From NCBI GenBank assembly GCA_008632985.1, contig QPGO01000217.1, positions 62,001-114,993 of the forward strand: 52,993 bases of DNA. The letters are read 5' to 3'. The notes under the pieces were generated by a model, which made no database searches, had not been told where the DNA came from, and was given only the letters and a program-made list of their open reading frames with translations. The position numbers were made by a program, and so were the translations under genes. Shown one piece after another: positions 1,100 to 52,993 of this stretch (position 1 is the first letter of the stretch; each line of letters opens with the position of its first letter). The stretch is from Psammoneis japonica. Its lineage: Eukaryota.

Positions 1100-4000
1100 G
1101 ACGTTTCGCAAAGCATCTCTGCCATGAAGTTGACAACCTCAACGACAACGCCTGCGGAGTTTGCTCCCCAGTCAAGCAGCGCTGCGCTGCACCTGTTAAA
1201 ATGGCCCCCGACCCACTGCCGTGCCTTGGACCATTTTTCTTGTGACATCTCCTCCGCGTTGTCTTGCTTTTTGCCATTTTCTCCATTGCCTCCAACCTCA
1301 GCACAGCTTTGACAACCCCCTTCTTTCCGCCTTCCTGCCCTTGAGCACCGGCCCTTTGCTTTTTTCTTTTTCTTCAACCGCAACACAGCTCCACACACAC
1401 CCATTTGGTCATGTTTCATCCAATCATGCACGATCACTTTTTTGGCTCTCTGCACCGCCCCTCTCACACCACCAGCTGCCCCTCCCAAATTCCTCAACCC
1501 TGACACCCCCTTCTCACATTTGTTCCCACAACACCAGTCACAATGCCAGCAATGGCCCTGTGTTGCTGTCCTTCTCCAAGCATGATCCCCTTTCTCGCTC
1601 ACCAGCCATGACCCCCTGACTGCAAACATGACACCTCAAAAAGCCCTCCGTCGACAACCTTCTTCCACGTCACGCCCTCCCTTGACAACCCCAACTGCTG
1701 ACCCCTGCAAACATCCACCCAACCTGACACCCATTCAATTGTGCCCCCAAATGGCCTTCTCTTTTCAGTGACTCACAAATTAACAACCCAGTGCGTCAAC
1801 CAAGACACCACTTTTGACTCTGCTTTCCGTGCTCTTCTCCACTCCGTGATGTCCTCCCTTTCTGACAAATTCAATTGGCCATCCCTTCAGGACAGCACCT
1901 GAAACTCTCAAGACTTCCAACCCCTCCTCTTGACCCCTGCTGCTGTGCCAGACCCCAGCTTGTCACCCAACCCTGCCTGAATCTCCGCCCCAGTCTCCAC
2001 CCAAGTCTCTGCCCAAGTTCCCGCCCAAGAAAGCATGTGCACACACCTCTTCAAATCTGCCCTTCCCTCAACTCTTCCACTGTCTCCATCTCCACTCCTG
2101 CCTCCGCTCCTTTCACCAAGCCTGCTGTTGCTCCCAACAAAAAGCCCTTCAACTCTGATTGCATCAACCCACAGACCGACTCCGATTCCAAGATCTTCAT
2201 CCTGCCAACCCTGCTGACAAACACAAACCCGCCGTCAATGTCAAAGGGGTCTGACCCATCCTTTGCATTACCCTCTGCACTCATGCCACCTGCAAACCAC
2301 TCACTCTCTTTAAAGTGGCTGACATCACCTTCTCTGAAACCTCCAAACGCCACTCCCATGACCCCATGTCACAATCAGTGGGCATCATGCTGCTTCAAAG
2401 TCACCTTTGCTCCCACTGCTTCCAACTGACCATTTGATTTCCATCTCTTCTGCAACCAAGTGCTTGGCCTTGCCATGCAAAAATGGCACCTCTTCCCTCC
2501 CATTCACTTCAAACCCCACTCTGCTGCCTCCACCTGCCTGGGCTCCCCTCTCCCCAGATGCCAAAGAACTTCCAGTTTATCCCAACCCTTGGATGTGGCA
2601 TGATGCCTTCCCCATCCCAGCCTGCAACAACTCCTTCACTGAACAAACCCACTGAGGATTCTTGCCGGCATCAATCCCAAGACATGTGGCCAGTCACACC
2701 TGTGAATTCCTCCTTGAAAAACTTCCCAGCCATGTCAAATCCCTCCGACCGCTCAGACCCCAACTTTTCTCTGTTCTCTAAATGCAACACCTTCTTTGAC
2801 CACATCAGAGCCAGGCCATTGCAATTCCGCAGCTTCTCCACAAGACAAACTGCAAACCTCCCCAAATCCGATGTCTGCTTCCTTGCAAATCCACGCCAGA
2901 AATGTGGGCCTCACTTCTGTCCATCGTCAACCCTCCCAACAGACCACCCTTCACTGTGCACATCCTTGGCCTCTCCCTGTCAACAGCTCTTTTTCTTTCC
3001 TTTCAAAACACCCCTTCAATTGCTGCACACCCACAAGCCATCAACAAACATCAAGTCAATGCCTGTGTCACAATTGCCAACTGCCTCAACATCTCCAAAC
3101 CCTCCGACTGCACCAAACCTTTGTGGCATCATCCCCATCTTTTTTGCACATGACAATGTCCCAATCAAGCACAAACTTCCCCTCTTGTTGTCTGCATCAC
3201 AGACACCACCCTTCACCTTTGTCCCAGCACACCCAAAGATTTGCTTTGCAACCCACCCACTTGCCACCCCCCCTCCTCCACCCACTCACACATCTGCACC
3301 CTTTGCTCAAGCAGTCCACAAATCATCCCATGATGCTCTCTCTTTTCTAGAAGCTTCCTGGCAACCCACACCAACACCAGCATCCATGCCACCGCCAATT
3401 GCTCCCCCCTCATCCCTCTCAAACAACGCCACCATGGGCCAACCTGATGCGGCTGACACCACCATGGATCAAACCAACGTCATTGAAACCACTGCAAACC
3501 AAACCAAGCCCACACCTCCAGTCCAAACTCCCACAGCTGCAGCCATTGTAGATGTGACACAACCTGATCCATTTGCCATGAACTTTGAACACTCTTGACA
3601 AGACTTTGAACTCCTTGATGCATCGCATTTGATCAATGGGTCTGCACCTTTGCACCAACACACCTCAACAAATGGAACAATCTGGCCTGCAATGCCACCA
3701 AACTAAAATCAAGACCCCCTGCTGCAACTCACCCAGCCATCTAGAAATGGAGGAACCCATCATTGGTGCACACACCTCATCAGGAGTTGCCAACTGGTCA
3801 TGCCCCTTTTCGGGCTGCTCTTTTTGCCTTCCAACAGGCACCCTTCCAACCCAGGTTCCCAAACTTCTGCATGCACATTTGTCCTCCATGCACAAACCAT
3901 TGCTGCATTTGATCCATGCTGGATTCTTTCTTCCAACAACACAGTCTGCACCCATGACTTCACTGCCAACGCACCACCAAAATGTGCCTTTGAGACACCC

Positions 4001-5233
4001 ACCTGCACACTCACCTGTGAAACACTCACCATCAAGCCCACATGACCACCAATGTCATCCATCTCATTGCATCATCCCACCCATGCCAAGAGCTTTCTGA
4101 ACAGAGAGCTTCCCTTCAGTGGCTTGCCTCACACTGGCTCTCTTGCCACCACCCTTCAGCGCCTCTGTTTGGCACAAATTGCCTCCCTCCTCCCACCTTC
4201 AAGTCATCCTTGCTTTCCACCTCCTTGTCTGATGGCATGTTGATTTTTCCATCTCTTTGACCCTGGTGGCAACAACCCACCTCCACCTTGGCAAACATCT
4301 TCAGAGCCTTTCTTCAAGCTCCTCCTTCATTTCAAGTCCCTCATCCTCCTCTGCCCATGCCCCAAAGACTCCAACATCCTAATTTCATCCACCATTGTGC
4401 AACACCTTTTTCTCTTCCAGAACAGCTCCATGCACACCCTCTGTGACAAATCACATTCCGTCCCCTTCCCACCAGACACATCCGATGAGAACCCCCCCAA
4501 CTTCAGCAACTCATCCCATCCTTGAAATGCCCTGCTGACATTGGCACTCAGCTGACACCCAGTTCTGCACTGCCACAAGCCCCACCTGCCCACAAATTCT
4601 TGGCTGCAGACGTCACTGTGCCTCCAGCTCCCCCACCCCCTGCACCTGGTTTGCCTGCCCCCAAAATCCCATCAAACAAGGTGCATCTCAGCAGCACATG
4701 GGACAAACTCCTTGGCTGCACTGTGTCATCTGCCTGGCACTTCAACATTGTCAATGCCATCAACCAAGCAGGGCTGTTCCTCCTCCCTTTCACCTTTGAC
4801 CACCTGGTGGCATTGGATGCCACTTCCACATCCTCCTCTGTCCTCCCTGTCCCTCCCAAACCACCTTGGACCCATTCATCATCCCTTTCTAACTCCCAAG
4901 CTTCCTTCTCCACCTTCAAAAAACTTGCTCCTTGGAATTTCCTCACCCGTTCCAACATTGCCTGGAAACAAGTGTTGTCAGACTGCTTTGGCACCTCCCA
5001 TCACACTGCCACCCCCAACTCTGGGCCTCACAAATCCTTGGCTTTGACTTTGGCACCGCTCTCTCCAACCATCTTTCTTCATGCCAAGCACTTCTTCTCT
5101 GACACCCAACTGTCAATGGCAACTCCTCCTCTCCCAAACATCTGTCCACACCCTTGGCCCATCTTTTTTCTCTCCATTGCTCAGTGTGCTCCGCACCACC
5201 CTCAGACCACACATCCCTGCCACCCCACCCCTT
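1100..5233 (+). mobile_element. Highly degenerate non-LTR retrotransposon remnant with restriction-like endonuclease (CRE/RLE-clade-like)
   Basis: Pyrimidine-rich, TpA- and CpG-depleted block. ORF 4522-5475 keeps RLE-type motifs (R>C)PADIG...LAADVTV...LLPFTFDHL(G)GIG, with W.xQILG..ALSNH downstream across frameshifts. A CPFSGC zinc-finger-like motif lies near 3800. No RT core recognised; boundaries approximate. Confidence 0.45.
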
Positions 5234-8200
5234 CAAAAAACAAAACCCAAAACATGTGTTTAAGGTGCTGCCACACTTCCGCCCCACAACTCCGGCATCA
5301 AGCTGGCTCACACCCCCAGCACACAAATGGCATGGCAGGCCCCTTCATCACTGCAGAGCCCCAACACCTGCCAACAATGAGCCATGAACAATCAATCACA
5401 GGGATGTCTTGCACCTCAAGGCTGCACCATTGGATCTGTGGTGCCACCCAAACTCATTGGACACTTTGTTTGTGAAAGACATGCACATGCTGCAATCGCA
5501 AAGAAAAGTGTGGACTTGTGGATGTTTTGTCAGATGGAAACAGCAGTGTGCAGTTTTTGCCATTGTGGGGGGGGGGCACTGTCTAGCTTGCCATTTGCCC
5601 TGAGTCTGCTCTTTGTTTGTGCAGAAAGTCTGGCATCATGTTGGCACATCCAGACATTTGTCATTTCTCATGGAGGCAGAACAAAGTTGTGTCAGGGGCT
5701 GTTCAGTGATGACAATTTTCTCAGCAACAACAAGAACGTGGCAACAAAGGCTCAGCATGTGGCTCAAGTGGAGCTGATGACAGGCACCACTGCAACTCTG
5801 CATCTGCTGCTTGGACTCATGAGATCTTTTGTTTGTGAAAGACAGTGCCAAATTTGTGGAGAAAAGTGAGGATTTGCACACTTTGCATTGGCTCAAGAGC
5901 AGAGGCAACTGGTGCATGCCTGTGCAATTCTGTTGGCATTGAATTGAAAAGGTCCACATTGCACCCCGGATGGTGCTTGCACTGAATCTTCTCTTCATTT
6001 GCACTGAAAAAAGCCACAAACATTTGCCATGCCACCAGAGCATTGCAAGACATTTTCATCTCATCTGAGTTTGGTGCAAAGGAGCTTGGGGATGAGAGGG
6101 GCAAACATCTGCCATGTGAGGTCTGCCATGTGATGTTGGTCACACAATCACACAAGCTCTCATCACCAGAAAAAGACTGGGCAGCTGGCGGACCAGTCAT
6201 GAAACCAACATCTCCATCAGCAAACACATGTCATGTTGGGAGTGGCAGGACAACTGGTTGGCTGGATTTCTGCTGCCAAAGCAAAGTTTCTTGACTTCAT
6301 CACAGTGTGCCATGTGATGACAATCAGCTGAGGATGCTGCATTGCAATCTTGCCTTGGTGACTGGGGGAGTGCTTGCTTCACCCTTTAATCTGATGCCAT
6401 GCCCAAGAGAAAATCAGATGCTTTCTTTTAATCAACAACATGTGCCAGCACACTGAAGTTGACCCATTCAATCAGCTCTTTGCCCTCTGCTCTGCTTCTT
6501 TTTGATTGTGCTTGAGCATCCAAGCCCAGTTGTCCCCAAACACCAAAAAATGGACAGTCTTGACTGGCCAACTTTGCTTTTGATTGGAGGAAAAAGGAAG
6601 TGGCCAAAGGAGGCTGTCATGCACAAAAACAAGTTCTTTCCATCTGACTGACCCTGTCCGCTGATCTGCTCATGCCAACAGCACAAAATTGGAGGAGGGG
6701 ACACAGCTCACCATGTTGATGAGTTGCTGTCACTGCACCTGCACTGCTTCCAAAATGTTCTGTTGTGAGAGTGATGCAGTTGCTGAAGTGTCTGAACCCA
6801 GCAATGAGTCAAATGTGGTGCTGTTTGCTTTCTCTCATCAGAGAGTTAAAACAAAAGGATCAGTTTTGGGCACAGCTTTGATTTGTGGGAAATCTTCAAA
6901 TGTGGGGCACAAATTTGCCCAACACACTTGCAATTTGTTGTTTGTCAGACAAGGGGGGGTGCAGGACAATTGCAGAGCAATCTTTGTGTGTGTCAGTGCA
7001 CACAAACACTTTGTTCTCATCAGCAAAGCTCTGGCCCTTGACTCTTGTTTGCACTGAAAAAGGACAATTCACGCCCTTTGAGAGAAGATGCCATTGGCCA
7101 ACCAAGAAAATGCTGCAATGTGCTGCACTGCTTTCACTCTGGGGGTGCTTTCTCAGACAAGGCTTTTTTCTCAAAATTTTCTTTCAGCCAGGGCAATGCA
7201 GCACACCACCTTTGTGCAGAAAGCCCCCCAGCTTCACAGTCTGCAGCCACTCATGTGTGGCTCAGAGCTGCTTCTTCCTCCACAGCTTTTTGCCATGCAG
7301 CTGCTGCTGTGCAGCAAACACACACCCCCATTTGCACTCTTTTGCACAGATGTGCCCCACTTGTTGCAAAACCAACAATTGCTTTTGGGGCAAATGACAG
7401 CACACTGAGAAGAGAGAAATGTTTTTGACAAAGCTCAAAAGCCAATGGCAGGTTGCTGCCAGCACAGCACTTCCCCAGCAGCAGCACACAAGGATGGCCA
7501 GAGATGTCTGTGAACAGTGCCTCTCAGCAAAGCAAACTTGGGAGAGGAAAGAGCAGTGTGCAAACTGAGATTGTTTTGCAATGTTTTGAATCAACAAGTT
7601 TGTTTTGAGCTGTCTCTGTTGTTGTGCCAAGGTCACTGTTTTCTCTGCAATGCTTCACGCCAATGTGTTGTGTGCAATGTGTCACAAGTGCTGCCTCTCA
7701 ACCAAGGAGATGCGCACATCTCTCAAAACCCAACCAATCAAGAAACAACTTGAGAGTGTTGTTGAAAAAATTTGAGGAGTTCAACCCTGACTCCTTTGAA
7801 AGGGATGCAGCGTGCCAGCCCATGTGCAACAAAATTTGGCATCAATGAACATGGTGCACAGTTGCTGGGGCCGCCGGAGTGACCAATCAGTCTGCGCAGC
7901 CGATTGCATTGGAGCAAGTTGCTCTTTTCAAAGATGCATCTTTTTTTTTCAAATCCATTCACTGGCCAATTGGCTTCTGTTTCAACAGAAGCCATGAGAG
8001 ATGAAATGATTTGTCATGGCTTCCATCAGGTGCAGGCAAATTTTGCAACAGATCCTTCTTGCCCGCCAGCTGCTCCCTTCAATTTTTGGCCATTCTGTCC
8101 CAAAACATCCATGATGGCCTTGGCCACTGCCACAGAACATGCCAGTGCAATGTGGTCAAGGGTGCCAATGACTCATTTTAACCAGTTGAAAAAAGTGGCA

Positions 8201-8439
8201 GTGATTTTGTTGAACTTTTCTTTTCATGTTTTTGTGTCTTGAAACAAGAGGCAGTCGCTTTGCTTTGCTGTTGCCAGTGTTGTCTCAACATTGGCAATGC
8301 AAGTCTTGCATGAACAATGCGAGCCTCATGCTGGCAGCTGACACAAAGCCATTTTAGACACATGCTGCTTGTCAGCTCTCTTGATTCACCGACTTGCCTG
8401 CAGAACGATTCATCATGTGCTCATTGGATGCAAGGTTCT

Positions 8440-8715
8440 TGACAGAAATTGAAGGCAAATGGCAAGAATTCAAACAATGGCTCCTTGCTGCTGTCTAAAT
8501 GGCAGATGAGTCTCCGCTCAGAGACCGTCACAGGAGCCGAAAGACGTGCAAGTCGGCACAATCGGGCTGCTGTTGTCATTCTTGTGAGCCTTGTGGCTCG
8601 AAAGCAAACTACATCGCGCGCGAACGTGCGGAACTAAAGCACACAAAACTGTGCGCGGCAAACTAAACAGCACGCGACATTTCGCACGCACCTGAATCCT
8701 GTTCAAATCCTGTCA
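8440..8715 (-). repeat. 3' LTR of copia element
   Basis: Colinear with 16032-16307 (about 14 transitions, no indels by eye); adjacent to the PPT. Confidence 0.95.
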
Positions 8716-11700
8716 CTCCCCAGTTTGCTTGAGGAGTCACAGAGACAGATTCGACTTCGGATGGAATGAAGTTCCAGAACATGAGGGGGCGGAGAAGGTC
8801 CCAGATTTGGGAGCAACCCCAATGCTTGCTGAGAATGTCAGCAGGGTTGCGGGAGCCTTCGATGAAGTGGAACTCAAGGCAACCAGAGGCAATTGCCTCA
8901 CGCACATGGTGGAACGACAGTGCGGTGTGTCGCTTGTGTAACTTGGAGTGCGGGATGGTGGCACTGTCTACAACCGACTTGTTGTCACCGAACATGTAAC
9001 TGACATTACGGATCGGGACGCCAAGGCAGCGCAGGGTGATGCGCAGGTCAACAATCTGCTCGACACAAGTCCTTGCGGCAACAAATTCAGACCCGCAGGT
9101 CGCAGTCTCCATGGTGGCTTGCTTCTTAGAGAACCAATCAGCCGGGAATTTGTTGAGGAAGTGGAGCATTCCCATGACAGAGCGTCCGGTGAGCATGCAA
9201 TGGCACAAGTTTGCATCGACGTAGTGGGTGGCAGTGACGAACTTGCCAAGGGGCGGTGGAGCGTCCTTCAGGATCATCTCTTCTGCCTCGCCGCACACGG
9301 AATGCATCCATTCACAGGCCGGAGCAGGGAGATCCGAATGGTCGGGCTCTTCCGTGCGAACGCGGAGAGTGCCGTGTCGCATCTTGGAGAGGTGCCCACA
9401 GACACGTTTGGCACGATCCAAGTGGCCTTGACGGGGTGCAGCTCGGAAGCTAGAGAGTGACATGACGGCCGTGGTGATGTCAATTCGACCAAGGGACACT
9501 GCCCATTGGAGTGAACCAACAAGAGACTGGAACTTGTGAATGCCATCGGGCCCCAGCAGTTCGGAAGTGTCCAGTTCGGGGTGGTCACCCTTCTCCAGAG
9601 GTGACAGGGCGTTGGTGGCAGGTTTCTCCCCAAACAGTCGGGCGCAGCTGTCGACCATGCACTCGATGTACTTGCGCGGAGACAGGCACAAGGTTCCGTC
9701 GGGATCGCGGGAAAAGTCGCAACCCAGATGGAACTCAATGGGTCCTGCACCCTTGAGCTTGAACTTGTGCTTTTCCGTGAGAGTGTCAACGAAGGATTGA
9801 GGGTCCTTCATGGCAATGGCGAGGTCATCCACATAAATGGCAATGCATTCACAGTGGTCGCCATTCCTGCGCATCCAAATGTCGGGTTCGGCACGGCAGG
9901 GGAAGAATCCTTCAGCTCGCAGGCAGTCGGCGAAGCGCTCGTGCCAGCGGAGACCAGAGCTGCACAGTCCATGCAGGGCCTTGTGGATGACAAGGATGTG
10001 TCCTTTGAGTTTGCCAAATTCGGGTCTGGCTGCAATGCAGAGCTTCTCCTTGGTGGTGGCTTCAAGGTGGGCATTGCCAATGTCGGTGGCCCATGTCTCC
10101 AACTCGTTGAGTTTGGCCAGGAAAATCATCAGCCAAAGGCCATGGAGGGAGACCACTCCGGAGCAGACACTGTCGACAGGCACGTCCGTGAGGTGCCCAT
10201 CGGCTGCGAGTCATGCCTTGTGGCGACCGTCATGTTTCACGTCGCACACCAGGTGCACTTGGATCTTCTTGTGTCCCGCAGGAGGAGTGGAAGACTTGAA
10301 GGGCCCGCAGTCATGGAAGACTTCGTATTCCTCGAGTTGGTCCATCTCGAGATTAGTTGCGTCTCCCCATTTGCGGTTGCCGTTGCGTTCGTCCAGTGAC
10401 ATGGCGTGTTTGCAGTTCCGGGGAACTTCGCATCCGCACTTGCAGTGAGGTGCAGTGCGGAAGGAGCGAAGCTTGGCTTGGTTGGCCATGCGAAACAGCT
10501 TCTTTTGGCGCCTCGCGATGGTGCGGAACCGCTTCCAGCCATCAGTGTCGAGAAGTCCGTTCTCTCGTGCATGGATGGCGCAGGTGACGGGGTCGTCCTT
10601 GGCGATGATGGCAAGAGGCTCGGACGTGATCTCCCCACTTTCCCGTTCAAGCATGATGTTGTAGCTTGAGCCTTTCCAGGTTGGGTCATGAGGCTTCAGA
10701 GGTCCTTCGTGTGACACGATGCGTCGAAATTTCCAAACAGCAGTGTCTTCGTCTTCTTGCTCAATGTGATTCATGATGTCATTGCAGGCAAGGACTTCCT
10801 CGCATTCGTCGTTGTTGACAGAGCAGACGAACTTGGTGAGCTCGGGATTGCCGTTCACTTTCCATTCGTGGTCTTCGACAGCCTTGACGATGCGAGCTCT
10901 GTGGCGTTGTCCGTCCTCTTGTGGCTGCATGAGGAAGGTGCATCCGATGATGTCTTGCGGATCAAAAACTGGCATCTTGGGTGTCCTGATCTCCCCATCA
11001 GGAGAATCGACGGGGTTGTCGTCATGGCAAGATTTGATGATGGGTTCAGGTGGCTCCCCATCAGGAGGATCAAGACGCAGGTTTCGAACGGCAGGATCGG
11101 TGGCAGCGGAGCATGCGTTGGACCGGCAGAGGATCTTCTGAGTCTCGTCAGAGAGAATCTTGAAGGTCATCTGGTGGCCGACGTGCTCAGCAATGCCAAC
11201 AAAGCGTCCACGCAACTCACGGGATTCGGACGGCCAATCGGAGTCATCGAGGTGGAAGTGCACGGGTTCCCACCAGTGAAAGCGAAGCAATGGGCTGATG
11301 TCCGGGGTGGAGCCAGTGAGAGTCTCGAGGGGCGTGCACCAGTGGAGACGTGGGGACGCTGCATGGTTGAGCATGAAGCACACACACATGAGCGCCAGCA
11401 GCCATGTGTGGGCGGGCGAACCAAAACGATCCATGACAGTGTTCGCCATGCGCTTCACGGTCTGGCATCAACGCTCGGCAAAGTTTTGGTGTTGCTGGTG
11501 AGGCTCACTTTGCCAGCTGGAGATGAAGAGGGCTCGTAGGATCCCGAGCACCTTGTTGCCAATCTCAACTTGAGCACGATCGCCAATGAGTTTGGATGGG
11601 GCACCACGCTCCCAGATCTGATCCTCGAGTGTGTTGACAAACTCTTTGTCCGTGTTGGTGCCGCAGACGTCAGTGACGGTAGACTCGGTGCCAACAAACA

Positions 11701-15955: not shown

Positions 15956-16014
15956 GAGACAGCGTCGTCGGCAGATCAACGACGACGATGGCGGTTGCTC
16001 AGCGGGTTGACAAT

Positions 16015-39721: not shown

Positions 39722-39822
39722 AAAGCTTGCAGATTGACTGGCCAGAGGTGTGAGAGCTTGTAGGAGGAACAAATTTTAGAATGAGACGCTTGTAAAATGC
39801 TGCAACGAGTGACTGAGAAATG
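39722..39822 (+). repeat. Dispersed ~90-100-bp direct repeat; second copy at 47289-47378
   Basis: GATTGACTGGCCAGAGGTG..GAGGAACAAATTT.AGAATGAGAC..CAACGAGTGACTGAGAAA is present in both. Confidence 0.8.
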
Positions 39823-40571: not shown

Positions 40572-40886
40572 AAAGAGAATTTGTGAATTGCAAACAAAAA
40601 CAGTGGCATTGGAAAAAATGTTGAACAACAAGTGAGTTTGTGCAATGCACCATTTGGCAGCAAATGGGACAAAAAAGAGTGTCTGTGCACCTCACTGCAG
40701 CCCCAAAATGGCATTAGCCATCAGATGTGACAGTCATCTGCATCGCTGGTGCCGCAGCCCCACCACCCTGTTGCCACAATGCCAGCCCCTGTGGCAGGGC
40801 CTTGCACATGCACAGGCAATGAAGCATGCAATGGCACACACACACACACACACAAAGAAAGACAAGTGGTCAATGCTCCCCGCAGG
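40572..40886 (+). repeat. Dispersed repeat, copy 2 of 22090-22404
   Basis: Same shared sequence blocks and the same 3' breakpoint as copy 1. Confidence 0.8.
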
Positions 40887-43019
40887 CCTGGTCCATTTCT
40901 TAGTGGATCGTGTCATTCCTGCTTGGATGCAGGGATCTCTGTCAGGTTGTGAGCAATGCTTGCACAAACGTGCAAGCAGGGCTCCTCCACCACTGCGCAG
41001 ACAACACAAACACCACCTTGCTTGTTTGCATCATTGTTGTTTGTTTTTGTGGCTGCTTGTGTGAGTTTTGGCACACACTCTCTCTCTGTGCATCATCACA
41101 CTCTTGTTGGTTTTGTGCTGCTGAGAACTGACACACACTGCCCCCCTGGTGTGACATTGATGAATTTTGTTGGTTGTCACCTTTCACCATGGCACCTGCT
41201 GACAACACCCACTCCAAAATGGCATCATCATGGCGGGCCACATTGTTGTCCCTGCAAGCCACCCTCTTGCTGAAGTCGGCCAATGGAACATCAGTCACTG
41301 CCACTCCCGCAGAGCTGACCTGCCTGTCAACTCCTGCTGATGCAGTTGCTGCCAAGTCACACTCCCATTCATCACCAACAGCAGAGGATGCTGTCAAGGC
41401 CAAAGCAACTGCTGCAGCACACCAGATGAGGGAGTTGCACCCCCTCCGATGCCTCCGGCAGACACCACCCTGTGTTGCAACAGCTCCTTCCCCAACTGCC
41501 ACCCCACTTGCCAGCTGCCCCATGGATGGCTCAACATGCCAGCTGACATGCCACCACCACCAGCTGAACCTCCAGAGCCACCTCATTTGCCACCAACCTC
41601 AACTGAGGACCTTCTCTCCATGTGCAAGATGCAGCTCATTTCCACGATTGCTCAGATTGAGGGGCAAAAAAAGGCCCTTGACGAGTCTGCAGATGATGTT
41701 TCCAAGCTGTGTCATGAAGTCCAAGAATTGTGCAACATGACAAACTCCAACAGCGCTGCCATGATGGATCTTGGACACTCTCATGATTTTGCCATTTTGA
41801 AGTGCAAACCCAAATGGTGGCCACCGCTGCCAAAGCCACAGCTCTTGCTGGTGATGTGGCGAGCAAAGCTGTTGCTTCATGTGACGCTCAATTTTTGGCA
41901 GCACTTGACAAGAAGACAGCCCCAGCATGCAAGGCTGTGGAGGCCACTGTTCTCAACTGTGTGTGCAAAACCACGGCTGTTGCCCAAAACAACTTGGAGT
42001 CCTTTGTGGCTGAACAAACCCATTGGCTGGAATCAGCTGCATCGGATGCAGCCCGAGTGGTGGGTGATCACATTGGGTCTGCCCACAAAAATCCCAGGCT
42101 TGCACCCAGGGGGGGGGGGGGGGGGCATCAAACAACAGAACAATGAGCTGGCTGTGACACTCACTCATTTGGAAACCACCAAGGCCAAAACTGAGGTGGC
42201 CATTCAGAATGGTCTTGCTGTGGTGTGAACACCATGACGGGCACTCTGGAGGGCTGTGAGAAATGTTGCTGCATCATCCATGTCACCACCATCCAACCCT
42301 GTGCCCCTTCATTGACCAGCCACCCTGACTCCCACTTCATCACAAAAGACCGCCTGGCCAACAAGCTCGTGGACCAGCTGGACGTCCTCCAAGCACAGCT
42401 CACATCCCAGAAAGATGCCACACAGGTGCAGGCTGGGCAGGTTGAGACAGCTGCCAATGTTTCAGAGGCTGCTCTTTGTGTGGTGGCTGGGATTCAAAAG
42501 GAGCTTGGCAAATGTTGACAGTCTCTCCCTCCTCCGGATGTGGCCGCAGCTCCCTCTCCTCCCCATCCGAGTCCTGCAGCTGCAGGATGCAGATGCAGGG
42601 ATGTCTGTCATCATTTTTAATTTTCCCCTTCATGCACGCACCCACCTGCTGACACGCGAGTGTGCGAAGAATGCAACAGATTCACTTCAATGTTGAAGTT
42701 CATCATGAACCTGTTCATTGACAAACACAGCACATGCTCCAGACAGACAATCGTCACACGTGTGCTTGTGCATGCAGCACATGCACAGCATGCATTTTTT
42801 GCATCAAGAGAACACGCGAGCTTGCCACGTAGAAAAAGCACGTGTGGCTGCATGTGCGGTGAGACATCCGTCTGGCTTGATGGTCACATGATGGTCACAA
42901 GTCACAAGGACTTGGCAAGGTTGCCAACAAACGATTCCCTGCAGAGCCTGTTGCATCATGTTCCGTGGATCGTCTCCAATCTCCTTTCATTCTCTTGGTG
43001 GAGACAACAAACAATTGTC

Positions 43020-44590
43020 ATGATGCCTTGTTGGCTGCAGTCGTTTGTCCTTGTCGCAGTCTCAAGTGTGGCTGTTCGTCATTTGGCGGTGCAAGCGGCC
43101 GCTTGCGGCGAGCAGTGTTCCATGGATGCCGAGTGCACTGATGGGCTTTGCACACTTGGTGTTGGTTGCTGCAAGTGCGACTCCACTTCTGGGGTGTGCA
43201 CACAAGATGCTTTTCCAGGTGTTGTGTGTCCTGAAGATGGCAATCTTGACAGAGGCTGCAAGCAGCCGGGTGACATTTGCGACGAAGGAATTTGTTCCAG
43301 CGCTCTTGGTTGCACGTGTTCATCATTTGGGTCATGTTTTCTTGATGAAGATTTCAATGGAGTTTGCACCTCTGGCACTGCAAACTGCAAGCAGGGCTTG
43401 TGTGGCCCAGGTGCTCAGTTCCATGGTGAGTGCTGCTGTGTTGCCAACATCTTTTGCGGTGGCAGTGCGTGTGCAGGTTTTGCGGCAGACGGCGATGTCA
43501 ATGGGGCATGCCTTGGCGGCAACACCTGCAATGTTGGGTGCTGCTCGACCAACGCCTGCTGCTGCAGCTTTTCAAAATGCACCCCCATTCTGCAGGGGAC
43601 GGCTCCAATTCCAAGCAATGCAGAAAGCTGCTCCTCCTTTTTTTCCACCATTGGCAAACCTTGCAACTCGGGCAATCTTTGTTCGAGTGGTGTGTGCAAC
43701 ACACAGATCCCAAATTCCTTGTTTGACCCAAACAATGTTTTTTGTGTGTGTGACCCCGCCGGCTTGCCGATGCAACGGGTGCAAATGATGGCAATGCAGG
43801 ACAGAATTGTGAGTCAGGCAACTGCGCCAGAGGCTTGTGTTCGGGGGCAAATTGTGTCTGCAATGCCAGTGCTTGTGTGTTGGCAGGACAGCGTGGCTGT
43901 GAGTGCCACCCCAGTGCAGAACCAGGGCCACCTTGCAATGAGGCCCTTCTGTGCTGCACCAAACCGCCACTCTTTGGACCCAACTTGGGATCTGGTGTCT
44001 GTCTGGACGCTTGTGTGGCAAGTCAAAACCCCAGCAAAACTCCCAGCAGGGAACCTTCCAAGGTTCCGTCTTTGGAACCATCTGAGGTGCCATCAATGGA
44101 ACCATCAGTGGAGCCATCAGAGGTGCCATCAATGGAACCATCAGAGTTGCCACCGGTGTCATCTGCCCCCAGCAATGAGCCATCGGATGTTCCTTCCGTT
44201 TCAGCAGAACCAAGCCGACAGCCGAGTGACCAACCTTCTTTGTCACCGTCGTCCATGCCTTCCACCTTGTCATCCTTTGTGCCGTCAAGCAATCCAACAG
44301 GAGCCATGTGTGGCAATTTCCCTTGTTCGGATGATTCAGACAGCAAGGAAAAGGCTCTGGTTTGTTCAAACTGCAAGACGAAGTGTGCTGATAAAGACAA
44401 GGTGGACGAAAAGTTTTTCGGTTTGAGCAACAATCCGAGTTCACACTGTGGACCTTGCAAGGGAGAAACTGCTTGCATCGACCATCCTTGCACCAAAGGA
44501 TCTCGCTTGGCCATGGACAAGGTGTGAGTGTGTGACAGGAGAAAGCCAAGCAAGCCAAAAACCAAGTGTGTGAAACCCAGCAAGGTGGAG
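43020..44590 (+). pseudogene. Degraded secreted Cys-rich / PSxxPS mucin-like cell-surface protein gene
   Basis: Signal-like MMPCWLQSFVLVAVSSVA, then Cys-rich repeats. After a frameshift near 43770 come [26 protein letters not shown] tandem repeats and a Cys/Lys-rich tail. TpA is nearly absent. Confidence 0.6.
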
Positions 44591-45526
44591 AAAATCCTCA
44601 AAAAATGTGGCGGCAATTGCAGTTTATGTGATGAGACCAGGAGGAACATGTTTGTCCCGTCTGGACAGGGAATGAAGTTCATCATTGCAGTGAGGTGGAA
44701 GAGGGAGCTCTGAAGATCTCAAATCGGAGAGGGCATGGTTCGACAGAATTTGCTGGAAGGGGGGCGTTTTTGGCAATGGCAATGCCAACCCCAAAAATTT
44801 ATTTTCTTCTCTCCTTGTGCCAGCTGGATGTCTTTCCCAAAGCGAGTGCATGGCATGTGTTGTTCGTGATGTTCTTCATTCCTCCTCCAGGGTTCTGTGC
44901 CACACTTCCAGCTGGAGCCATCCAACTTTGAACCCAGAATGCAGCCTCTCAAAGGAAGTCGAGGCTTCAAGATGTCTGCCATGACACCGCCACCAAATTG
45001 AAGGAAGGTTCCAAGCTTCGTGTCATGGTCCATTGTGCAGTCAAAGCCAGTGACTTGATCTTTCACCTTTTCAACAATTCCTGACTTGTGATGCTGCCAC
45101 TGACCAATTTTCATCTTGACAAGATCAGCATGCTCTGTGGGATCTCAGTTGTTTGTTCATCATCAAGCCCAAGGATTTCTGATGGTGAGATTGTCCAGTT
45201 GTGGCTTTTGGGGGGTTCTTGATGTCTTTGCATCACCATCACCCCAACTCCACCTGGAGCAGCAAGGGATCATGAGCTCAAAATGACAGGGATTGGACAG
45301 CCCCCATTGCACTCCCCATGAGAGAAAAACAAAACAATTGAACAACCATTTGCCCTTCTCCAACTTGGAAACTGTTTTGCTTGGTGCGCCTGCATTGCTC
45401 AAGTTTCGTCTTGTGTTTGCTGACTGTGTCAACAAGAGTGTTGCCAGGATGACATCTCAGTGGTCTTTCTGGGCACATGCTTGTGCCAGCATGATTCATT
45501 GAATGGTCATCATTTGTCTGTCTGGA

Positions 45527-45601
45527 CAGCATGTGAGTGCCACTTTGGTGATTGACAATCTGTCTTGGCAGCATGAGTGCCACTTTGGCAACTGATGATC
45601 T
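45527..45601 (+). repeat. Short tandem duplication (~35-bp unit)
   Basis: CAGCATGTGAGTGCCACTTTGGTGATTGACAATCT / CAGCATGAGTGCCACTTTGGCAACTGATGATCT; the differences include reciprocal TG/CA pairs. Confidence 0.7.
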
Positions 45602-47816
45602 TGATGATCTGGCGAGCATTGCTCTCAGAGTTGACCTGAGTGCAAAGATCCCCTGCAACTGCCTTGGCAGTGGCAAGCACATTGAGGGAGCTCTCTGGGA
45701 GCTTCATTTTGTGCAGATGTGAGTTGAGTGCAGGGTCATTGCTTCTTGTGCATTCAGGAACCCTGCTGCCATCTTGTTTCCAAGCAGTGGCCCCAACAAC
45801 CACAAGCTTGCTGACTGTCACATGGCAGCCTGGTGTGAGCAGTCAAAAGCTCACCCCCAGCCCCTCTGGGATGTGCTCATTTTAGTGTGCTGGAAGTGTG
45901 TGTTGCCCGGCGCAGGCTTGGCTGGCAATTGAGCAACAGCACTGTCAAAAACTGGTGACACACTGAGATGCCAGCACATGTCAGGCCAGTGGCATCTCAA
46001 CACATCATCAAAAGTGAAAAGTGTGGAACCAACTGAGTGCAGCTCATTTTTTCCTGCACTGATCTCTTTGTGGTGCTGCTTGAGCCCAGTCTGCTGTGTT
46101 GTGCACTGCTGTCAGGTCCAGTTCGGCACTGGCATGGGCCTGTGCATCAATTCCACAACACACCTCAAGAGAGTCTGCTCCCAACCAAAATCACTTGATG
46201 GTTGGTTTCACACATTTGATGATGCACTAAGATGCCACCAGCCTGACACATGTGCACATGTTGGGCCAATCGCATCTCAGCAAGTGTGTCATCAAAAACA
46301 GATCTGCATTTTGGGGGGGGGGGTGCTCATTGGTTTCTTTCCAAAGTGCACCCGCCTGGCTCCACAGCCTCTGGGTTTTGACCCCAGTTGCCGTGCACCA
46401 AATCGTCTGGAATGTGAGTGAAACCAGCTGCAACATGGTCCAGGGTGTTCAGCCACTTGAGGAGAGCTTGATCTCCTGGTGTGCTGGCAGCAAGATCTGT
46501 TTGAGCTGCAGGATCTTCAAGATTGTCCTCCTTGCTGTGACTGAGGACATCTTTTGAAAACCACTTTTGCAGCTCAGAACACCACAAAATTTGCTCACCA
46601 TCTTGGGTGCTGTGAGTGCAACATTTTGCAGCTCTGCAACCACAGGAGTGCTGACAGCTCCAAACTTTGATGTGGACGCCCTCTGCCACAAAAGGTTCTT
46701 TCGGTCTTGTGTTTGAATGTGGGCACTTCATTGAGCACCATGCAGTCAAATGGCAACACAGGCAGAAGCACCCAAAATGCTTTTCCAAAGTGTGACATTG
46801 CAAACTCCATGCTGTTGGGTGAGCATCAAACTCCTGATGGCAAAACAAGCTGAGATCATGGAGACCCACAAATCCATTGTTTGCACACAGTGCAAAGCTT
46901 TTGTTGCTGACTGGGGCAAAACAGAGAGTCCTGCACATGCCACACCAATGGGTTGCAAGTCAAGCAAGCTCATGTTCCATTGTCAGAATGAAGAGCAAGT
47001 CAAGGCAGCTTCAGCAATGCACCATCGGGTGGCCCATTGTCATTGAGCATCAGTGGAGCAACAATGGGGTGACTGGTGTGGTTGCCAAACTGTGGATGCC
47101 TGAGGGTTGCAAGGTGTTTCTGGGTGAACACACAACTCTGCTGAAACAAAACAGAGCTGGAAAACAATCCTTCATTTCCATCCAAACCCTGGGGGTTTTG
47201 CACATCAGAGATTACACAGAGTGATGCTTTGAACAATGTCCATGACATTTTGTGGACTTGGAAATGCAAACCATCAACTGGTGGTGCAAAAAGTTTGCGA
47301 TTGACTGGCCAGAGGTGAGAGTTTATTGAGGAACAAATTTAAGAATGAGACAAATGTCAACGAGTGACTGAGAAAATGAGACACTGTGGAGGCAAACAAT
47401 GATTAAAAGAAAAAGATCTCCATGGGGACAAAAAAAAAATCACACCCAGCACGCATCGCATTCGTGCACAACAGTCGTCCGAATACCTGCAAGGGGCTCT
47501 TCACCGATCAGTCAGTAAGTACAGTGGGGCCCTCTAGATTTTGTGCATGGCGTACTCTATTGAAACTCACCACAGCCAACAGTGTGATTTTTGAAGAACT
47601 TGCAACGGAAAAGTCGACGGATAATTCACAGAACGCCACATGCTGTATAATATATGTTGCGACTCTCCGAGCGATAGGGGTCTGCTTCAACGCTTCAATG
47701 TTACATAACAGAAAAAGTATGAGAAAGTAAACTGTTGCCAATAGTAGATTACTCTCCACTCCTCTGGATAGCATTTGCTATGCAGCCAAAGAAAGAGGGG
47801 ATACAACGGATCACTT

Positions 47817-50320
47817 TTAGAGCTTGGAAATCCTTCCGCGCTTCTTTCGTTTGTAGTACTCTTGCACAGTCACACCTAATGCTACGCATTCTTGCAAAAG
47901 GCGGCTCGGTTCAAAGTATGAACTAGCCGGATACTTTTCATGGAAGCATTCCAAGGTCTTGAGCAATTTTGGCAAACCCACCTCCGTGTCGGCCCAGTAC
48001 ATGGGGCCACCTGCCGTATGTCAGTTCAAGGCAACAACGTGTCAGTACATGGTGGCAACGAAGCGGCACATCGAAAGATGACATTTCAACGAGACAAAAC
48101 GCACCTCTCCATACTGGCCAGCCGTAGCCATAAAGGTACACGACATCAATGTCGGAAGGCTTTTGTGCGATTCCTTCTTCTAAAATCTTGAAGCCTTCAT
48201 TGACAAGTGGAAACAAGATGCGTTCCACGATATCTTGTGGTGACGCAACATTCGATGTAGGCGTGGTCGCGTATTGCTTCACAAACTCCGTAACCTCAGG
48301 CGATGGCAATGGCTTTCGCCCCTTGCCAATGTTGGGGATCATAGTCATACCACCCCTTGAAAAGAAAACAAAGCATCGTGGGAATATGTTGGAACAAAAC
48401 AGGCAACAGAAACAATAGCATAAAGCCCAATACGGGCTGAACATAATTGTTCTCAACTCACCTTTTGCGCCTTTTGACCGACACGTCCCAGCTCGGTAAC
48501 CAAATCATCCGCAAGCTCCGTATAGCGGGCGGGCCTGTTCGGGCCAATTTGTTTCGTTTTCAAATCACGCACCACTCCTTTTTCTTTTCGAATAAAGTAT
48601 CTGTTTCAAGGATGGATAAGGCGTGGGCAGAATGTCAGAACATGAAAATGAATAGATACAACTGCGGTAAACATTAATGATCGAATACAAAAATTACTCA
48701 CCCAATGTCATTTCCAGCCAAGTCTGACATGCAAAAGGGACCAAGGGCCATGCCAAAGTGTTGTTGCATGGCCTTGTCAATGGACTCCACCGTCGTGTTT
48801 CCTTCAGTCAATAGCAGAACCATTTCGCTAGTATACGGGTGAAGCATGCGGTTGCCGACAAATCCGTCACAATTTCCTACAGTGACCGCGATCTTTCCCA
48901 TCCTCTTGGATAACGCTTGTAACAGCGACACGGTGTCGCTCGATGTGACATTGGGAATCACAACAATTTCCACTAGCTTCATTACGTGCGCGGGAGAAAA
49001 GAAATGCCAACCAGCACAGCATCCACGACGTTGCGGTCGGACTACGCTGGATATTTCTTGAATGTCTAACGTTGATGTATTGCTCACGAGCAACGCACGC
49101 GGGTTCTGGACGATTTGGTCCAACTGTTTGAAAATCGATTTCTTGATGGACATATTCTCAACAACCGCTTCAACTACCAAGTGAGTACTTGACAAGGGCG
49201 CCAAGTCCACGCTGGTCTTTAAACGAGTCGTTAGTATCTGCTTTTGTCCGAGAGAGAGCTTGCCGCGCTTCACGTACGTATCGAGTGTCTTGAGAATGTG
49301 AGCTTTCCCCTTTTCCAACGCCTTTGGCTGTACGTCAACAAGCCAAACAGTAAAGCCAGCCTGCAGTAAGACCAAGGCGATCCCACTACCCATGGTACCG
49401 CCACCTATGACTCCCACTTCGCAAGGGCGGTCGGACGGCTGCATCAAAGCGTGCCTTTGTAGGCTCTCGGATAAAGCCTTCTTGGGAGCTGCAGCCCGTG
49501 TCGCAAAGAAAGCGTGGCGCCGCGCTTGACCTTGGCTGCTGGCCAACGTTTCAAAGAAAAGCTCAGCCTCACGCTCCATCCCTTGATCAAAAGGTAGCGT
49601 ACACGCCGCGTGAATTGCATCCAGGGCTGCGTGAAGGCCTTGACCTCCCATAGGTAAAGGCGGCAGCTTGGAACGGGTCGCTTCAATCACGGAATAATCC
49701 TCTTTCGAGGCCTTAATGACAACCTTAGAAAGCCTTGGAAGATTAAAAGATCCCAATAGGCCTGCCCACTCAGCCCATTGCTTTGCGCAATCGACTAAGG
49801 ATTGATCCTTATTAGAGATCGCATCGAGAAAGCCAATCTCGAGAGCTTGCTCCGAAGTCAGAGATTTTGCTTTGAGAATTATCTCAATAGCTGACTTTGT
49901 ACCAACCAATCGAGGCAGTCGCTGAGTTCCTCCAGCGCCAGGGATTACACCAACATTAACTTCGGGCAGCCCAATTGTCGCCTTGCTTGATGCGACACGA
50001 AAGTGACAGGCAAGAGCTACTTCACAACCACCGCCCAAGGCAACTCCACAAATTGCACCTACAACTGGCTTGGGATACGCCTCAATATAATGACACAAAT
50101 CTACCAAGGAAATAACGTCAGAATCTCTTCCGAGAGAGCTGAACTCAGTAAGATCAGCACCCGCTGAAAAGTGCTGTTTCCCAGAAAGAACGATTCCAGA
50201 AACAGATGCGTCATCAAGATACTTTTCTAACGACTTGTGTATGTGCTTTCTCGTCGCCACACCCAACGTATTCAGCTTATTCTTACAGCAGGCGCCGATA
50301 TCAATTACTTTAATCGTCAT
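47817..50320 (-). CDS. Peroxisomal bifunctional enoyl-CoA hydratase / 3-hydroxyacyl-CoA dehydrogenase (MFE/EHHADH-like), PTS1 SKL
   Basis: FSAGADL, ALGGGCE, GLPEVNVGVIPGAGGTQRLPRLVG, GGGTMGSGIA, EAVVEN, SNTSTL, HFFSPAHVMKLVE, GFVGNRML; C-terminus RISKL*. Introns 48601-48701, 48356-48461 and 48011-48104; apparent 1-nt indels near 48584 and 48335. Confidence 0.93.
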
Positions 50321-50599
50321 TCTTATCAAACAGATGGAACAGCGGTACGGTTACGATACAGTAGGATGCTGAAGGGCGGTGAGTGAATGAGGTGTTATCG
50401 TCGACCGTCTCTGCGCTGCTGTCTGCGCTGATGCGGCTCTACAGTATGTACAGTAGACTACCAGCGACGTACGTACGTACAGAAGACACCAAGCGGCAGC
50501 CCGGAAACCATCAGCCATCCTCCCCGCTACGGTGCCGTATGAACACATGCTGCCGCCACCGCACCGCTTGGCAAAACATCACAGCTAGCTGAACGATTC

Positions 50600-52993
50600 G
50601 GCTTGACCCATCACGCCTCCACTCCATCACAATGGGGCCTTCAGAGCCTCAGCCTCGCAATCAACAAATCAATTGCTGACCAACTGACCTGCTGCTCCAC
50701 CAAACTGCAACCCCAACTCTCTGACCCCAGCTCGAACCCCATCGCCTTTCCCACCCACATGACTCAGTTCCACCCTGCCTTGCACCCTTGCACCACATCT
50801 GCCCATCCCCCCGCGCCACTGGGTGACATCGCACGTGAACTCCTCACGCGCGCGTGCCACTCCACTGCAGAGGCAGTTCCCCCAACTGCCGTGCCGCCGA
50901 GGCTGGATCGACGTTTAGCGGCATTTTTTCAAACAGCTCGTGACTCCAATGATTTGCTCGCACTTCGCCCGTGTCATTTTGCGATGCATCTGAGCACCCC
51001 CAAACACTTGTGTGTGTGTCTGGCCCCCATCAGGGCTGTCAGACCTTGATGTGAACTGCACTTGCCAACCTTCAAACGCCGGTTGTCGCATTGGGCGCGG
51101 TTGTCATGTTCGACAAACCGCTGTTTTTCGCCAAAATCAGACTGTTCATGGCAGACAAGCCGCAACTTTCCAGGAAAGGCTGACAATTGGCATTTGACTG
51201 GCCACAGACATGTCCACTGTCATTGTTCTAGAGATCCCAAACCCTCGCATTCACTGTGCATGCACTCCATGACATCTTGCGAACGGACAAAGTTCGACCC
51301 ATCGCTGAACATGTTTTTGGCGAACGCGCGCATTGCCAGCAAGGACTGAGGCGAGCGCGTGGCTGCATGAAGTCAGGCGGGACTCACTCAGTCATGCATG
51401 CACACACACCCTCCGAATGCCACTCACCATGAGAGTCGGAGCGGCATTTCATGCTGCTGCCAAACCTTTTCAACAACAGCAGTGCTTTGGAACAGTTTCT
51501 GCCATCATGTGGAAACTGTTTTCATTGCTTGTTTGAAGGCAATTGCTCAATCGAAAGGTCAAAAAATGGATTTTGTAATTGCGCCACCATCCGCTGCTTT
51601 TTTCGTGTGCTGTCGCGATGCAGCCACATTGTGCTTTCGCGACACTGACTCGTTCTTTTTATTTGACACACTCGTTTCACACACTTGTGTGGGGAGCATT
51701 TCAACCATGTTAAAAGCCCCAACGAGGAACACCGGCTCTTAGTTTCATATCGACATTTGAGCCATTTGACTGCGGCCGACATTTCTGCATCAATCGAGGT
51801 GTGGGGCTGTTGCATGTTGTGCACTGTCTTTTGGATCAAGCCAAGCAACGGATGGTCGATTTCATTGACAACATGGATTGTGGTGTGTGTCACTTGATGG
51901 CAGACAATGGCAAGTGTGTGATTTGTGGAGCTCACAACTTGCTGCCGCGAACAATGATGACATTCACCTCGAACGCAAGCAACTGACGACAACACTTTCT
52001 TGCTGTTTTGCATTTTTCTTGCTCATCATTGAAAGCTTCAGGCACTTGTCGCTTCACTGCGGTTTTGCACTGCATTTTTAGCCATCAATGTCCAATCTGT
52101 CATCTCGACTTCTCACGGCAAAAATCGGGATGGATGACATGAATCCAGGAGGAGGTTGGGGTCGGAAAATTGGCCAGCCGGTGGTTTTGCAATCTCTTGA
52201 CGGCAAGTGGCACTTTTGTGATGTGAAACTCCACTTTTTTGTTGAGACGTGTGCTAAAAAAAAATCTTTGCTCATTGTCCAAAGCTGCCGACACATCCTG
52301 CTCGATCAGGGACCCTTCCTGATCGGGCAGATTCGGCAGCTTGGGACTCGGCAATGCCGGATTCATGTGCGCAAGTGCTGTCGTCTCCTCCCCCTTCTTC
52401 TCCATTCACAGGTTGGTGTTGAGCAGATTGGGCAGCTTGGGACTCGGTGTCACCGGATTGGCGTGTGCGAGTGCTGACACGAAACAAATCTTTCTCGTGC
52501 GTTTGCTGCCAAGAATGCCGCAGGATTTCACACGGCAATTTGACCAATGATTTGCACGGGGACACAAAGCAAAAGAGATGCTGAGCATTGGAGATGCGAT
52601 TGCTTTTCTTATTCTTGATCTTGATGCTTTTCGATGCACTCATGACATGCACCTCGGCACCGGGTCATGGAGCTTCTAGATGGGGTCCGTGTTCGGGATG
52701 CTTTTTCAATTCGGCATTCATTTGTGTTGCCGTGACATCTTTGTCCACACCCCGCAGCTTCAATTCCATCAACCAAGCATCAGCACTAACCCAATGCCCA
52801 ACATGATACGACGTTTTCCGTGGCTTTGTCGCGTCGTCGAATGCTGCGTGGATCGTTCTTTGTTTTGGTGCCATTTCATTGAATCGGCTGCACCCAATGC
52901 ACAAAGTAGACTAATTGGGTGCAGGTGGTTCGTAAACACTGATCAGGTGCAGTGAACATTGTTGCTAGCAAAAGTTATTTGCATCGGCATGCC
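50600..52993. other. TpA-depleted, CpG-retaining repeat-like domain with degraded ORFs and a ~55-bp tandem duplication (52325-52380 / 52421-52476)
   Basis: TpA is rare while CpG is common; GCAGATT.GGCAGCTTGGGACTCGG..CCGGATT..GTGCTG occurs twice. No family recognised. Confidence 0.5.

Follow-up and report, generated by a model that had tools for sequence, protein, structure and literature searches.

TpA-poor domains, the copia element and the host genes

The window analysed here is the whole of a 52,993-nucleotide stretch of contig QPGO01000217.1, in which genes of ordinary composition adjoin sharply bounded domains that have lost nearly all of their TpA dinucleotides, and most of a Ty1/copia long terminal repeat (LTR) retrotransposon lies in the largest of these domains. 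Overall G+C is 50%, and the per-kilobase profile of TpA is very uneven. A simple segmentation, which allowed a maximum of two TpA per 300 bp, delimited seven TpA-poor domains that cover 32,653 bp of the 53 kb. They contain 119 TpA, where the TpA frequency outside them would predict about 1,334 (z = -34). The observed/expected ratio (o/e) of TpA is 0.029-0.098 in each domain and 0.60 in the remaining 20,340 bp, which hold 831 TpA and have a CpG o/e of 0.96. Pooled over the domains, o/e is 0.06 for TpA, 1.68 for TpG, 1.63 for CpA and 0.47 for CpG (0.25-0.77 by domain). Expressed as frequencies, the losses of TA (0.0373) and CG (0.0238) amount to 0.0611, and TG and CA together gain 0.0603. AA, TT and AT are not depleted in the domains (o/e 1.27, 1.24 and 0.84), where G+C is 0.513 vs 0.478 outside. 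An initial annotation had described TpA as nearly absent from the repeat domains of this DNA and normal in its genes, and these values bear the description out. The span that it gave, 1100-52993, holds for the seven domains but not throughout: the first boundary lies at about 1031-1061, and about 20 kb of genes, as well as an island of 590 bp, are TpA-normal.

The domain edges are sharp, to within tens of bp. TpA is dense up to position 1030, after which only those at 1061 and 1197 appear among the positions listed to 1500, and comparably sharp edges were found at 17316, 20667, 33108, 36796, 47340 and 50538. Host reading frames lie about 50-300 bp from the edges. Short (TA)n runs at 985-991, 14919-14925, 15171-15175 and 31401-31428 are located at domain edges or just outside them, or in the island, and illustrate how abruptly TpA stops.

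Domain 1 (1031..14795, like all seven not assigned to a strand) has 51 TpA in 13,765 bp (o/e 0.068), with its left boundary at 1030/1061, and consists of older unidentified repeat DNA at 1031-8439 (CpG o/e 0.04-0.6) followed by most of the copia element. The 4-kb block at 1031-5030 has 37-39% C and 13-16% G on the plus strand (G-C skew about -0.45) and carries 74-80 TpG among some 133-155 G per kb, so that T precedes over half of its G; it would appear to have been poor in G at first and to owe its present G largely to changes of TpA to TpG. Domain 2 (15380..17323; 11 TpA, o/e 0.087; right boundary 17316) holds the copia leader, the 5′ LTR and flanking older repeat. Domain 3 (20661..23326; 15 TpA, o/e 0.086) starts about 50 bp from the frame of a bZIP factor and shares a repeat with 40571-40886 (76.5% identity by BLAST, with 11 TG/CA doublets). 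Domain 4 (31531..33114; 5 TpA, o/e 0.047) is bracketed by direct repeats at 31495-31779 and 32672-32964, which show 4 TA/CA differences and 2 TG/CA doublets. Domain 5 (36787..39793; 11 TpA, o/e 0.055; CpG o/e 0.37) is without a recognisable protein. Depletion is deepest in domain 6 (39913..47340), with 13 TpA in 7,428 bp (o/e 0.029) and a CpG o/e of 0.25. A high-copy repeat lies within it at about 40337-41003, where the summed depth of contigs from run X1 is 635 vs a baseline of 32.5. Domain 7 (50529..52787; 13 TpA, o/e 0.098) represents another high-copy family, with summed X1 contig depths of 513-1,930 over 50342-52993 against the same baseline. Between-copy differences in these two families (40337-41003 and 50342-52993) are mainly transitions (218 of 295 places). 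Other long TpA-poor stretches have a depth of about 32.5 and match no second X1 contig at ≥85% identity.

The copia element, of the CoDi-like type, is a single insertion at 8440..16307 on the minus strand. It has the hallmarks of Ty1/copia: LTRs with TG...CA ends, a 5-bp target-site duplication (GTTCT at 8435-8439 and 16308-16312) and a reverse transcriptase of the RVT_2 type, which in such elements lies downstream of the integrase. Both LTRs are 276 bp long and lie on the minus strand, the 3′ LTR at 8440..8715 keeping 4 TpA and the 5′ LTR at 16032..16307 keeping 2. The polyprotein frame (8663..14362, minus strand; 1,900 codons) ends in TAG and is interrupted by two TGA stops, each at a conserved Arg position (CGA to TGA). 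Pfam did not detect an integrase in it, though relatives align along the whole polyprotein. Environmental assemblies contain many relatives of the element, at 60-73% identity, and for one relative the diatom Cylindrotheca is given as the source. In the window a tblastn search with 120 copia relatives matched this element only, at 8690-11383, and found no further copia fragments. CpG o/e in the element is about 0.8-0.95 and TpA o/e 0.02-0.13; its older neighbours are depleted in both.

Within the copia leader lies the TpA-normal island (14795..15385, no strand assigned), which has 41 TpA in about 590 bp and normal CpG, with TpA-poor DNA on both sides. A search for terminal repeats or a duplication found none, Pfam, Rfam and tRNA scans gave no match, and the frame of 133 residues in the island does not look like a gene.

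In the TpA-normal parts of the window, Pfam identified a Kelch protein (17635-18729, plus strand), the bZIP factor (19379-20608, minus strand) and a Na/H exchanger (24521-25333, minus strand). Between domains 4 and 5 lies a host gene with a cyclase domain (33420..36509, minus strand; PF00211; TpA o/e 0.61-0.66), flanked by TpA boundaries at 33114 and 36787, for which a search returned only two matches, at 66-67% identity, neither of which helped to place the host. An exon of an enoyl-CoA hydratase / 3-hydroxyacyl-CoA dehydrogenase, also recognised by Pfam (48698..50329, minus strand; TpA o/e 0.56-0.64), served as a TpA-normal control. Its best 120 database matches are 45-56% identical to it, and all those among them that name an organism are diatoms, at 45-50% (Bacillariaceae sp., Nitzschia species, Pseudo-nitzschia and Ditylum). 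With 56% as the upper limit, the window would not derive from any genome with proteins in that database, which also covers Bigelowiella natans. Judged by the families of this protein and of the copia element, the host is a diatom-like stramenopile. Contigs of run X2, recorded as 'DNA?', skip stretches of 94-106 bp in the hydratase/dehydrogenase gene (48007-48702) that end CT..AC, which is GT..AG on the minus strand, and this run therefore appears to be cDNA-like. It gives no cover over 37002-47006, and no conclusion on expression was drawn from it.

With TAA and TAG excluded from them, the TpA-poor domains carry long spurious open frames in all six frames, 132 of which reach 90 codons or more. 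A Pfam scan of these 132 stop-to-stop frames, in the domains other than the copia element, gave no credible family; it yielded a low-complexity PT repeat and four weak matches with E values close to 0.01. One open frame of 601 codons with a Cys-rich middle lies at 42621-44423 on the plus strand, in the most depleted domain; it has no Pfam family and its best Atlas score, 0.78, was uninformative. It may be a dead gene or a product of the absent TAA and TAG stops. Rfam and tRNA scans of the window returned nothing.

Direction, flanking context and strand of the changes

The changes were polarised by comparing the copia polyprotein with its relatives. In an alignment of the reverse transcriptase/RNase H part with 120 database relatives, where columns with at least 80% Tyr were taken as conserved, the window keeps Tyr at 3 of 15 positions (8 are now Cys, 3 His and 1 Phe) vs 246 of 266 for the other columns (p = 2e-10). 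The whole polyprotein was set against TA-normal metagenome loci, with a minimum of 8 loci and 70% agreement in each column. Here Tyr survives at only 5 of the 37 conserved positions, the rest having become Cys (19), His (9), Phe (3) or Trp (1), vs 613 of 681 for other residues (p = 8e-25). After Tyr, Arg has suffered most (46 of 57 kept), with 11 losses to Cys, Gln, Trp, His or stop; by their sequence, the Arg losses and the TGA stops bear the signature of CpG decay. The motifs with Cys or His in place of Tyr that the initial annotation had listed in the reverse transcriptase/RNase H part are all present in the translation, with Tyr in the consensus of 19 relatives. RL[A]ADGH, which it had also listed, indeed has the codon GCA where relatives have Val, and one change of Leu to Pro at a conserved Leu was counted in the polyprotein.

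The same picture emerged at the level of nucleotides. In a codon alignment with 76 TA-normal relatives, 20 positions carry TA in at least 60% of them. The window keeps TA at 4 of these 20, and has TG at 10, CA at 4 and TT at 2 (p = 2.5e-7); retention of the remaining 15 dinucleotides is 68-98%, so that the spectrum does show the excess specific to TpA that had been proposed. Three control relatives keep the conserved TA at 16/19, 18/20 and 16/20. Retention in the window is 28/32 for AA, 20/23 for CA and 43/51 for GA, and since A following A, C or G is kept at 84-88%, a 5′ T is required. Read against these relatives, the changes run from TpA to TpG or CpA, as the initial annotation had it, and are restricted to TpA.

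Among 80 related metagenome loci, 76 have a TpA o/e of 0.46-1.02, among them L001, the closest relative, with 73% amino-acid identity and a TpA o/e of 0.84, and the consensus of the 76 has Tyr; Cys and His are thus not native to the family at these sites. The remaining four are TpA-depleted (L058, 0.02; L062, 0.13; L077, 0.31; L035, 0.33); they come from three or more other assemblies, and their DNA identity to the window does not exceed 69%. Three of the four (L058, L062 and L035) were codon-aligned, and these keep conserved TA at 1/20, 2/20 and 9/20, respectively, the remainder being mostly TG or CA. L035 and L077, with their intermediate depletion, look like partly mutated stages; the outcomes in L035 lean to CA (7 CA, 1 TG), the reverse of the window copy. 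Three database proteins carry 5-10 changes of Tyr to Cys or His at positions other than those of the window, and the other 117 carry 0-2.

When the window and the three codon-aligned hypermutated relatives were pooled, conserved TA had become TG in 26 cases and CA in 25. Both strands are acted on. Sense-RNA editing alone would give only TG, and the CpA outcomes, with the near equality of TG and CA, therefore cannot be explained by it; on both points the initial annotation was right.

The TpA that survive are not a random sample with regard to their flanks (Y, pyrimidine; R, purine). YTAR accounts for 66 of the 119 survivors in the domains vs 143 of 831 TpA in normal DNA, and RTAY for 8 of 119 vs 286 of 831 (p = 7e-22). 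The relative survival is about 0.2-0.3 for YTAR and about 0.01-0.02 for RTAY; among the mixed classes it is about 0.09 in three of four and 0.006 for ATAG/CTAT. The four hypermutated metagenome loci go in the same direction, with RTAY making up 23 of 111 vs 33.8% for the 76 loci of normal TpA (p = 0.004). By these tetranucleotide counts RTAY is lost fastest and YTAR slowest. We also considered a strand-specific half-site model, in which TAY gives TGY and RTA gives RCA, and rejected it, as the outcome is independent of the 5′ flank (8 CA and 11 TG after a purine, 16 CA and 17 TG after a pyrimidine; p = 0.78). With the failure of this model, the preference would resemble the reading of a short palindromic site in double-stranded DNA at which either A:T pair may change, on the presumption that the ancestors had host-like tetranucleotide content.

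The two LTRs of a retrotransposon are identical at insertion. Here 262 of 276 positions are identical and the 14 differences, all transitions, comprise 2 TA/TG differences, 2 TG/CA doublets, 5 changes of CpG type and 3 others outside the hotspots, which makes 2-6 TpA-type events vs 3 non-hotspot changes in 276 bp. As the LTRs started out identical yet differ at TpA sites, the process acted at least partly on integrated DNA. Some mutation thus took place after insertion, and the four TA/CA differences between the direct repeats at 31495-31779 and 32672-32964 testify to the same. The TpA that survive in the LTRs (4 and 2) are all in CTA[A/C] contexts. The copia element has lost most of its TpA and mostly kept its CpG, whereas its older neighbours have lost both, and hence TpA loss probably outpaces CpG decay. 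With only 3 non-hotspot differences between its LTRs the element appears to be young, and the TpA process to run far faster than the background.

Weighing the explanations

We consider it very probable that the window records heritable, DNA-level hypermutation of TpA to TpG or CpA that affects either strand inside transposon and other non-genic domains with abrupt edges, in the nuclear DNA of a diatom-like host, with CpG decay superimposed. The hypermutation is restricted to the domains and leaves the adjoining genes untouched; it would seem to be targeted by a mark of silenced or foreign DNA and not to spread simply along the chromosome.

Several observations weigh against this explanation. 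A recognisable transposon protein is present in only one of the seven domains. The island of about 590 bp is unmutated within a mutated element; either it was inserted after the mutagenesis, or the process targets particular sequences instead of spreading regionally. Copies differ in their ratio of TG to CA (heterogeneity p = 0.047), the extremes being 10:4 in the window and 1:7 in L035; a strand-coordinated component may lie behind this. The LTRs keep some TpA, so mutation after insertion was partial, and part of the internal depletion may come from a parent copy that was already mutated. The TG/CA doublets of the three repeat pairs (2, 2 and 11) were rejected as proof of a TA ancestor, since a CpG ancestor gives the same doublet and they are ambiguous between the two. 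The polarity leans on relatives whose protein identity is 73% at most. It is possible that run X1 is the window assembly's own data, and its platform is not on record. Finally, the window is a long-term footprint, without real-time mutations seen in this organism.

There is a small chance that RNA (by an ADAR/ADAT-like activity) or cDNA was edited during retrotransposition and the changes were fixed when the copy integrated. The best-characterised domain is a retrotransposon, ADAR/ADAT-like RNA editing favours a 5′ U, and the coding strand shows a lean in the expected direction, with TG and CA at 10:4 and Tyr changed to Cys 19 times vs 9 times to His (p = 0.087); the LTRs, only partly depleted after insertion, also leave room for inherited changes. 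Yet the CpA outcomes (4 of 14 in the window, 25 of 51 pooled) need changes on the other strand, one relative is skewed oppositely, at 1:7, the TpA differences between the LTRs postdate insertion, and six domains without retroelement proteins are depleted equally or more. Furthermore, comparable changes in Bigelowiella natans arise in place in integrated DNA, as reported in the main text of a preprint (Mettrop et al., 2026; 10.64898/2026.01.13.699255). That these families are natively TpA-poor, by codon or sequence bias or by selection through a TA-specific nuclease or TA-targeting transposons, is hardly tenable. TpA is somewhat under-represented even in the normal DNA of the window (0.60) and in most related loci, but the idea is already contradicted by the 76 of 80 related loci with o/e of 0.46-1.02, by invariant Tyr of the catalytic domain that are now Cys or His, intolerable for a functional element, and by unrelated non-coding repeats that are depleted as well, with the depletion stopping within tens of bp of their edges.

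We would give as little credence to an artefact of sequencing or base calling, in which a modified base at heterochromatic TpA is misread. The uncertain provenance of run X1 works in its favour. Against it, clean X1 contigs at a word depth of 32.5, like that of the flanking genes, match 33000-47846 with 0 differing letters; misreading both thymines would make the strands disagree (CA vs TG) at every site, which is not seen, and each site is instead fixed as TG or as CA; and the pattern recurs in loci of three or more other assemblies, as well as in database proteins that are unrelated. As X1 may be the assembly's own data, it carries little weight by itself, and the independent assemblies are the stronger argument. 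It is similarly far-fetched that GC-biased gene conversion among repeats and 5-methylcytosine deamination suffice. The domains do bear marks of such processes, in a CpG o/e of 0.25-0.77, the 11 Arg losses of CpG type, the two stops from CGA to TGA and a slightly higher G+C (0.513 vs 0.478), but CpG decay is unable to remove TpA or Tyr codons, and gene conversion is not dinucleotide-specific, whereas AA, AT and TT are undepleted and the retention of conserved AA, CA and GA is 84-88%.

As to the chemistry behind TpA hypermutation, an enzyme recruited to the TpA-poor domains might deaminate adenine to hypoxanthine at TpA, and replication would then fix the site as G:C; we hold this as a tentative proposal, a little short of an even chance. 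Oxidised or modified thymine, of the kind produced by TET/JBP-type enzymes and mispairing with G, is an unlikely route, and an error-prone repair polymerase a still less likely one. This ranking is a guess.

On a broader scale, it is possible, if on balance doubtful, that TpA-erasing editing of silenced mobile DNA is old or widespread in the supergroup of stramenopiles, alveolates and rhizarians (SAR), a diatom lineage and a chlorarachniophyte both possessing it, and that a natural DNA adenine deaminase or a modified-base pathway reads an RTAY palindrome on duplex DNA and outruns methyl-CpG decay. If so, it would leave 'open but dead' reading frames behind. The occurrence of the signature, near saturation, in transposons from a diatom-like host and in four environmental contigs suggests that the process is not peculiar to one species, and TpA hypermutation may be a general algal way to disable mobile DNA. 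This offers comparative leverage, as the responsible gene is expected to be common to lineages with the signature and absent from lineages without it, and equal strand use, the palindromic RTAY preference, the very sharp boundaries and the unmutated island constrain the mechanism. A natural sequence-directed editor of A:T to G:C in DNA, if real, would be of interest to base-editing technology. TpA-free DNA is also a trap for gene callers and for the annotation of transposons, since it yields long spurious frames and conceals transposon proteins from domain searches.

Comparison with known systems

In repeat-induced point mutation (RIP) of fungi, known from Neurospora and others, CpA is changed to TpA by C-to-T transitions, so that TpA and stop codons arise and G+C falls, and the process is defined by its dependence on duplication. 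The window resembles it in that dinucleotide-specific transitions affect mobile or duplicated DNA on both strands, leave genes intact and cause many missense changes. The direction is opposite, as the initial annotation had noted: TpA is destroyed here, TAA and TAG cannot arise and frames stay open. The domains correspondingly have a TpA o/e of 0.06, a CpA o/e of 1.63 and a G+C of 0.513 vs 0.478. With regard to duplication, present copy number, which is all that depth records, is high in some domains (513-1,930) and in others corresponds to a depth of about 32.5.

Deamination of 5-methylcytosine has the same products, TpG and CpA, in the same domains, and explains the changes of Arg to Cys, His, Trp and Gln and the two TGA stops. 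Its substrate is CpG, it lowers G+C, and it gives no account of the loss of TpA or of the changes of Tyr to Cys and His. Methyl-CpG decay is present in the domains as a second process, and the TpA changes are distinct from it, which was likewise anticipated in the initial annotation.

ADAR, APOBEC3, ADAT2/3 and TadA act on RNA or on single-stranded cDNA and leave a one-strand signature. The adenosine deaminases share with the present case an A that is read as G, a preference for a 5′ U or T and, in principle, defence by mutation. The difference from these enzymes is that in the present case the changes lie on both strands of DNA resident in the chromosome and show a palindromic preference for certain flanks; changes confined to the sense strand do not fit CA outcomes at 4 of 14 sites in the window and 25 of 51 pooled, or 9 changes of Tyr to His. 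We know of no established natural DNA adenine deaminase aimed at transposons. Polymerase eta in somatic hypermutation acts on the motif WA (W, A or T), which includes ApA. It is similar in that A changes to G where T precedes it, but this candidate of the initial annotation fits poorly because ApA is undepleted (o/e 1.27) and 28 of 32 conserved AA positions are intact.

The initial annotation had known of no description of such a system. Our literature search yielded one that matches, a 2026 preprint on the chlorarachniophyte B. natans, and no report of the signature in diatoms. According to its main text, TpA hypermutation arises de novo in integrated viral DNA: of the 302 single-nucleotide mutations recorded in the nuclear DNA of mutation-accumulation lines, 231 were located in two integrated viral regions, and 230 of these 231 were A to G or T to C, all at TpA and in some lines only, at a de novo rate about 1,000-fold over background (10.64898/2026.01.13.699255). 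The genome has 124 clusters that are TpA-poor and rich in CpA and TpG, reverse-transcriptase and DDE domains are over-represented among its coding sequences of low TpA, and the ADAT2/ADAT3 pair was proposed there as an enzyme candidate, not yet tested (10.64898/2026.01.13.699255). The main hypermutable region is single copy (10.64898/2026.01.13.699255). Together with the long TpA-poor stretches of the window that match no other X1 contig at ≥85% identity, this does not support the claim of the initial annotation that the process is restricted to repeats.

As far as the preprint's main text goes, the two cases have much in common: the changes are solely A:T to G:C at TpA, appear as TpG or CpA by strand, run toward G+C against the usual bias, and are confined to foreign or mobile DNA in an otherwise normal genome, and B. 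natans, too, has TpA-poor clusters rich in CpA and TpG. TpA-erasing hypermutation is therefore a kind of process already in print, and the diatom-like case adds a different major lineage. The differences, on the same basis, concern the host, a chlorarachniophyte there and a diatom-like stramenopile here; the depth of depletion, with a TpA o/e of 0.45 in the giant-virus region of B. natans and near saturation (0.03-0.10) in the present domains; the clearest target, which is an LTR retrotransposon here; and the kind of record, as mutations were caught de novo in B. natans and a long-term footprint alone is seen in the window. The preference for RTAY over YTAR observed here has no counterpart in the main text of the preprint, which mentions neither flanking context nor diatoms. 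Near-saturation, the flank preference, the four hypermutated environmental relatives and the 590-bp island go beyond that text, and the flank preference, the abrupt boundaries and the island add constraints on the process.

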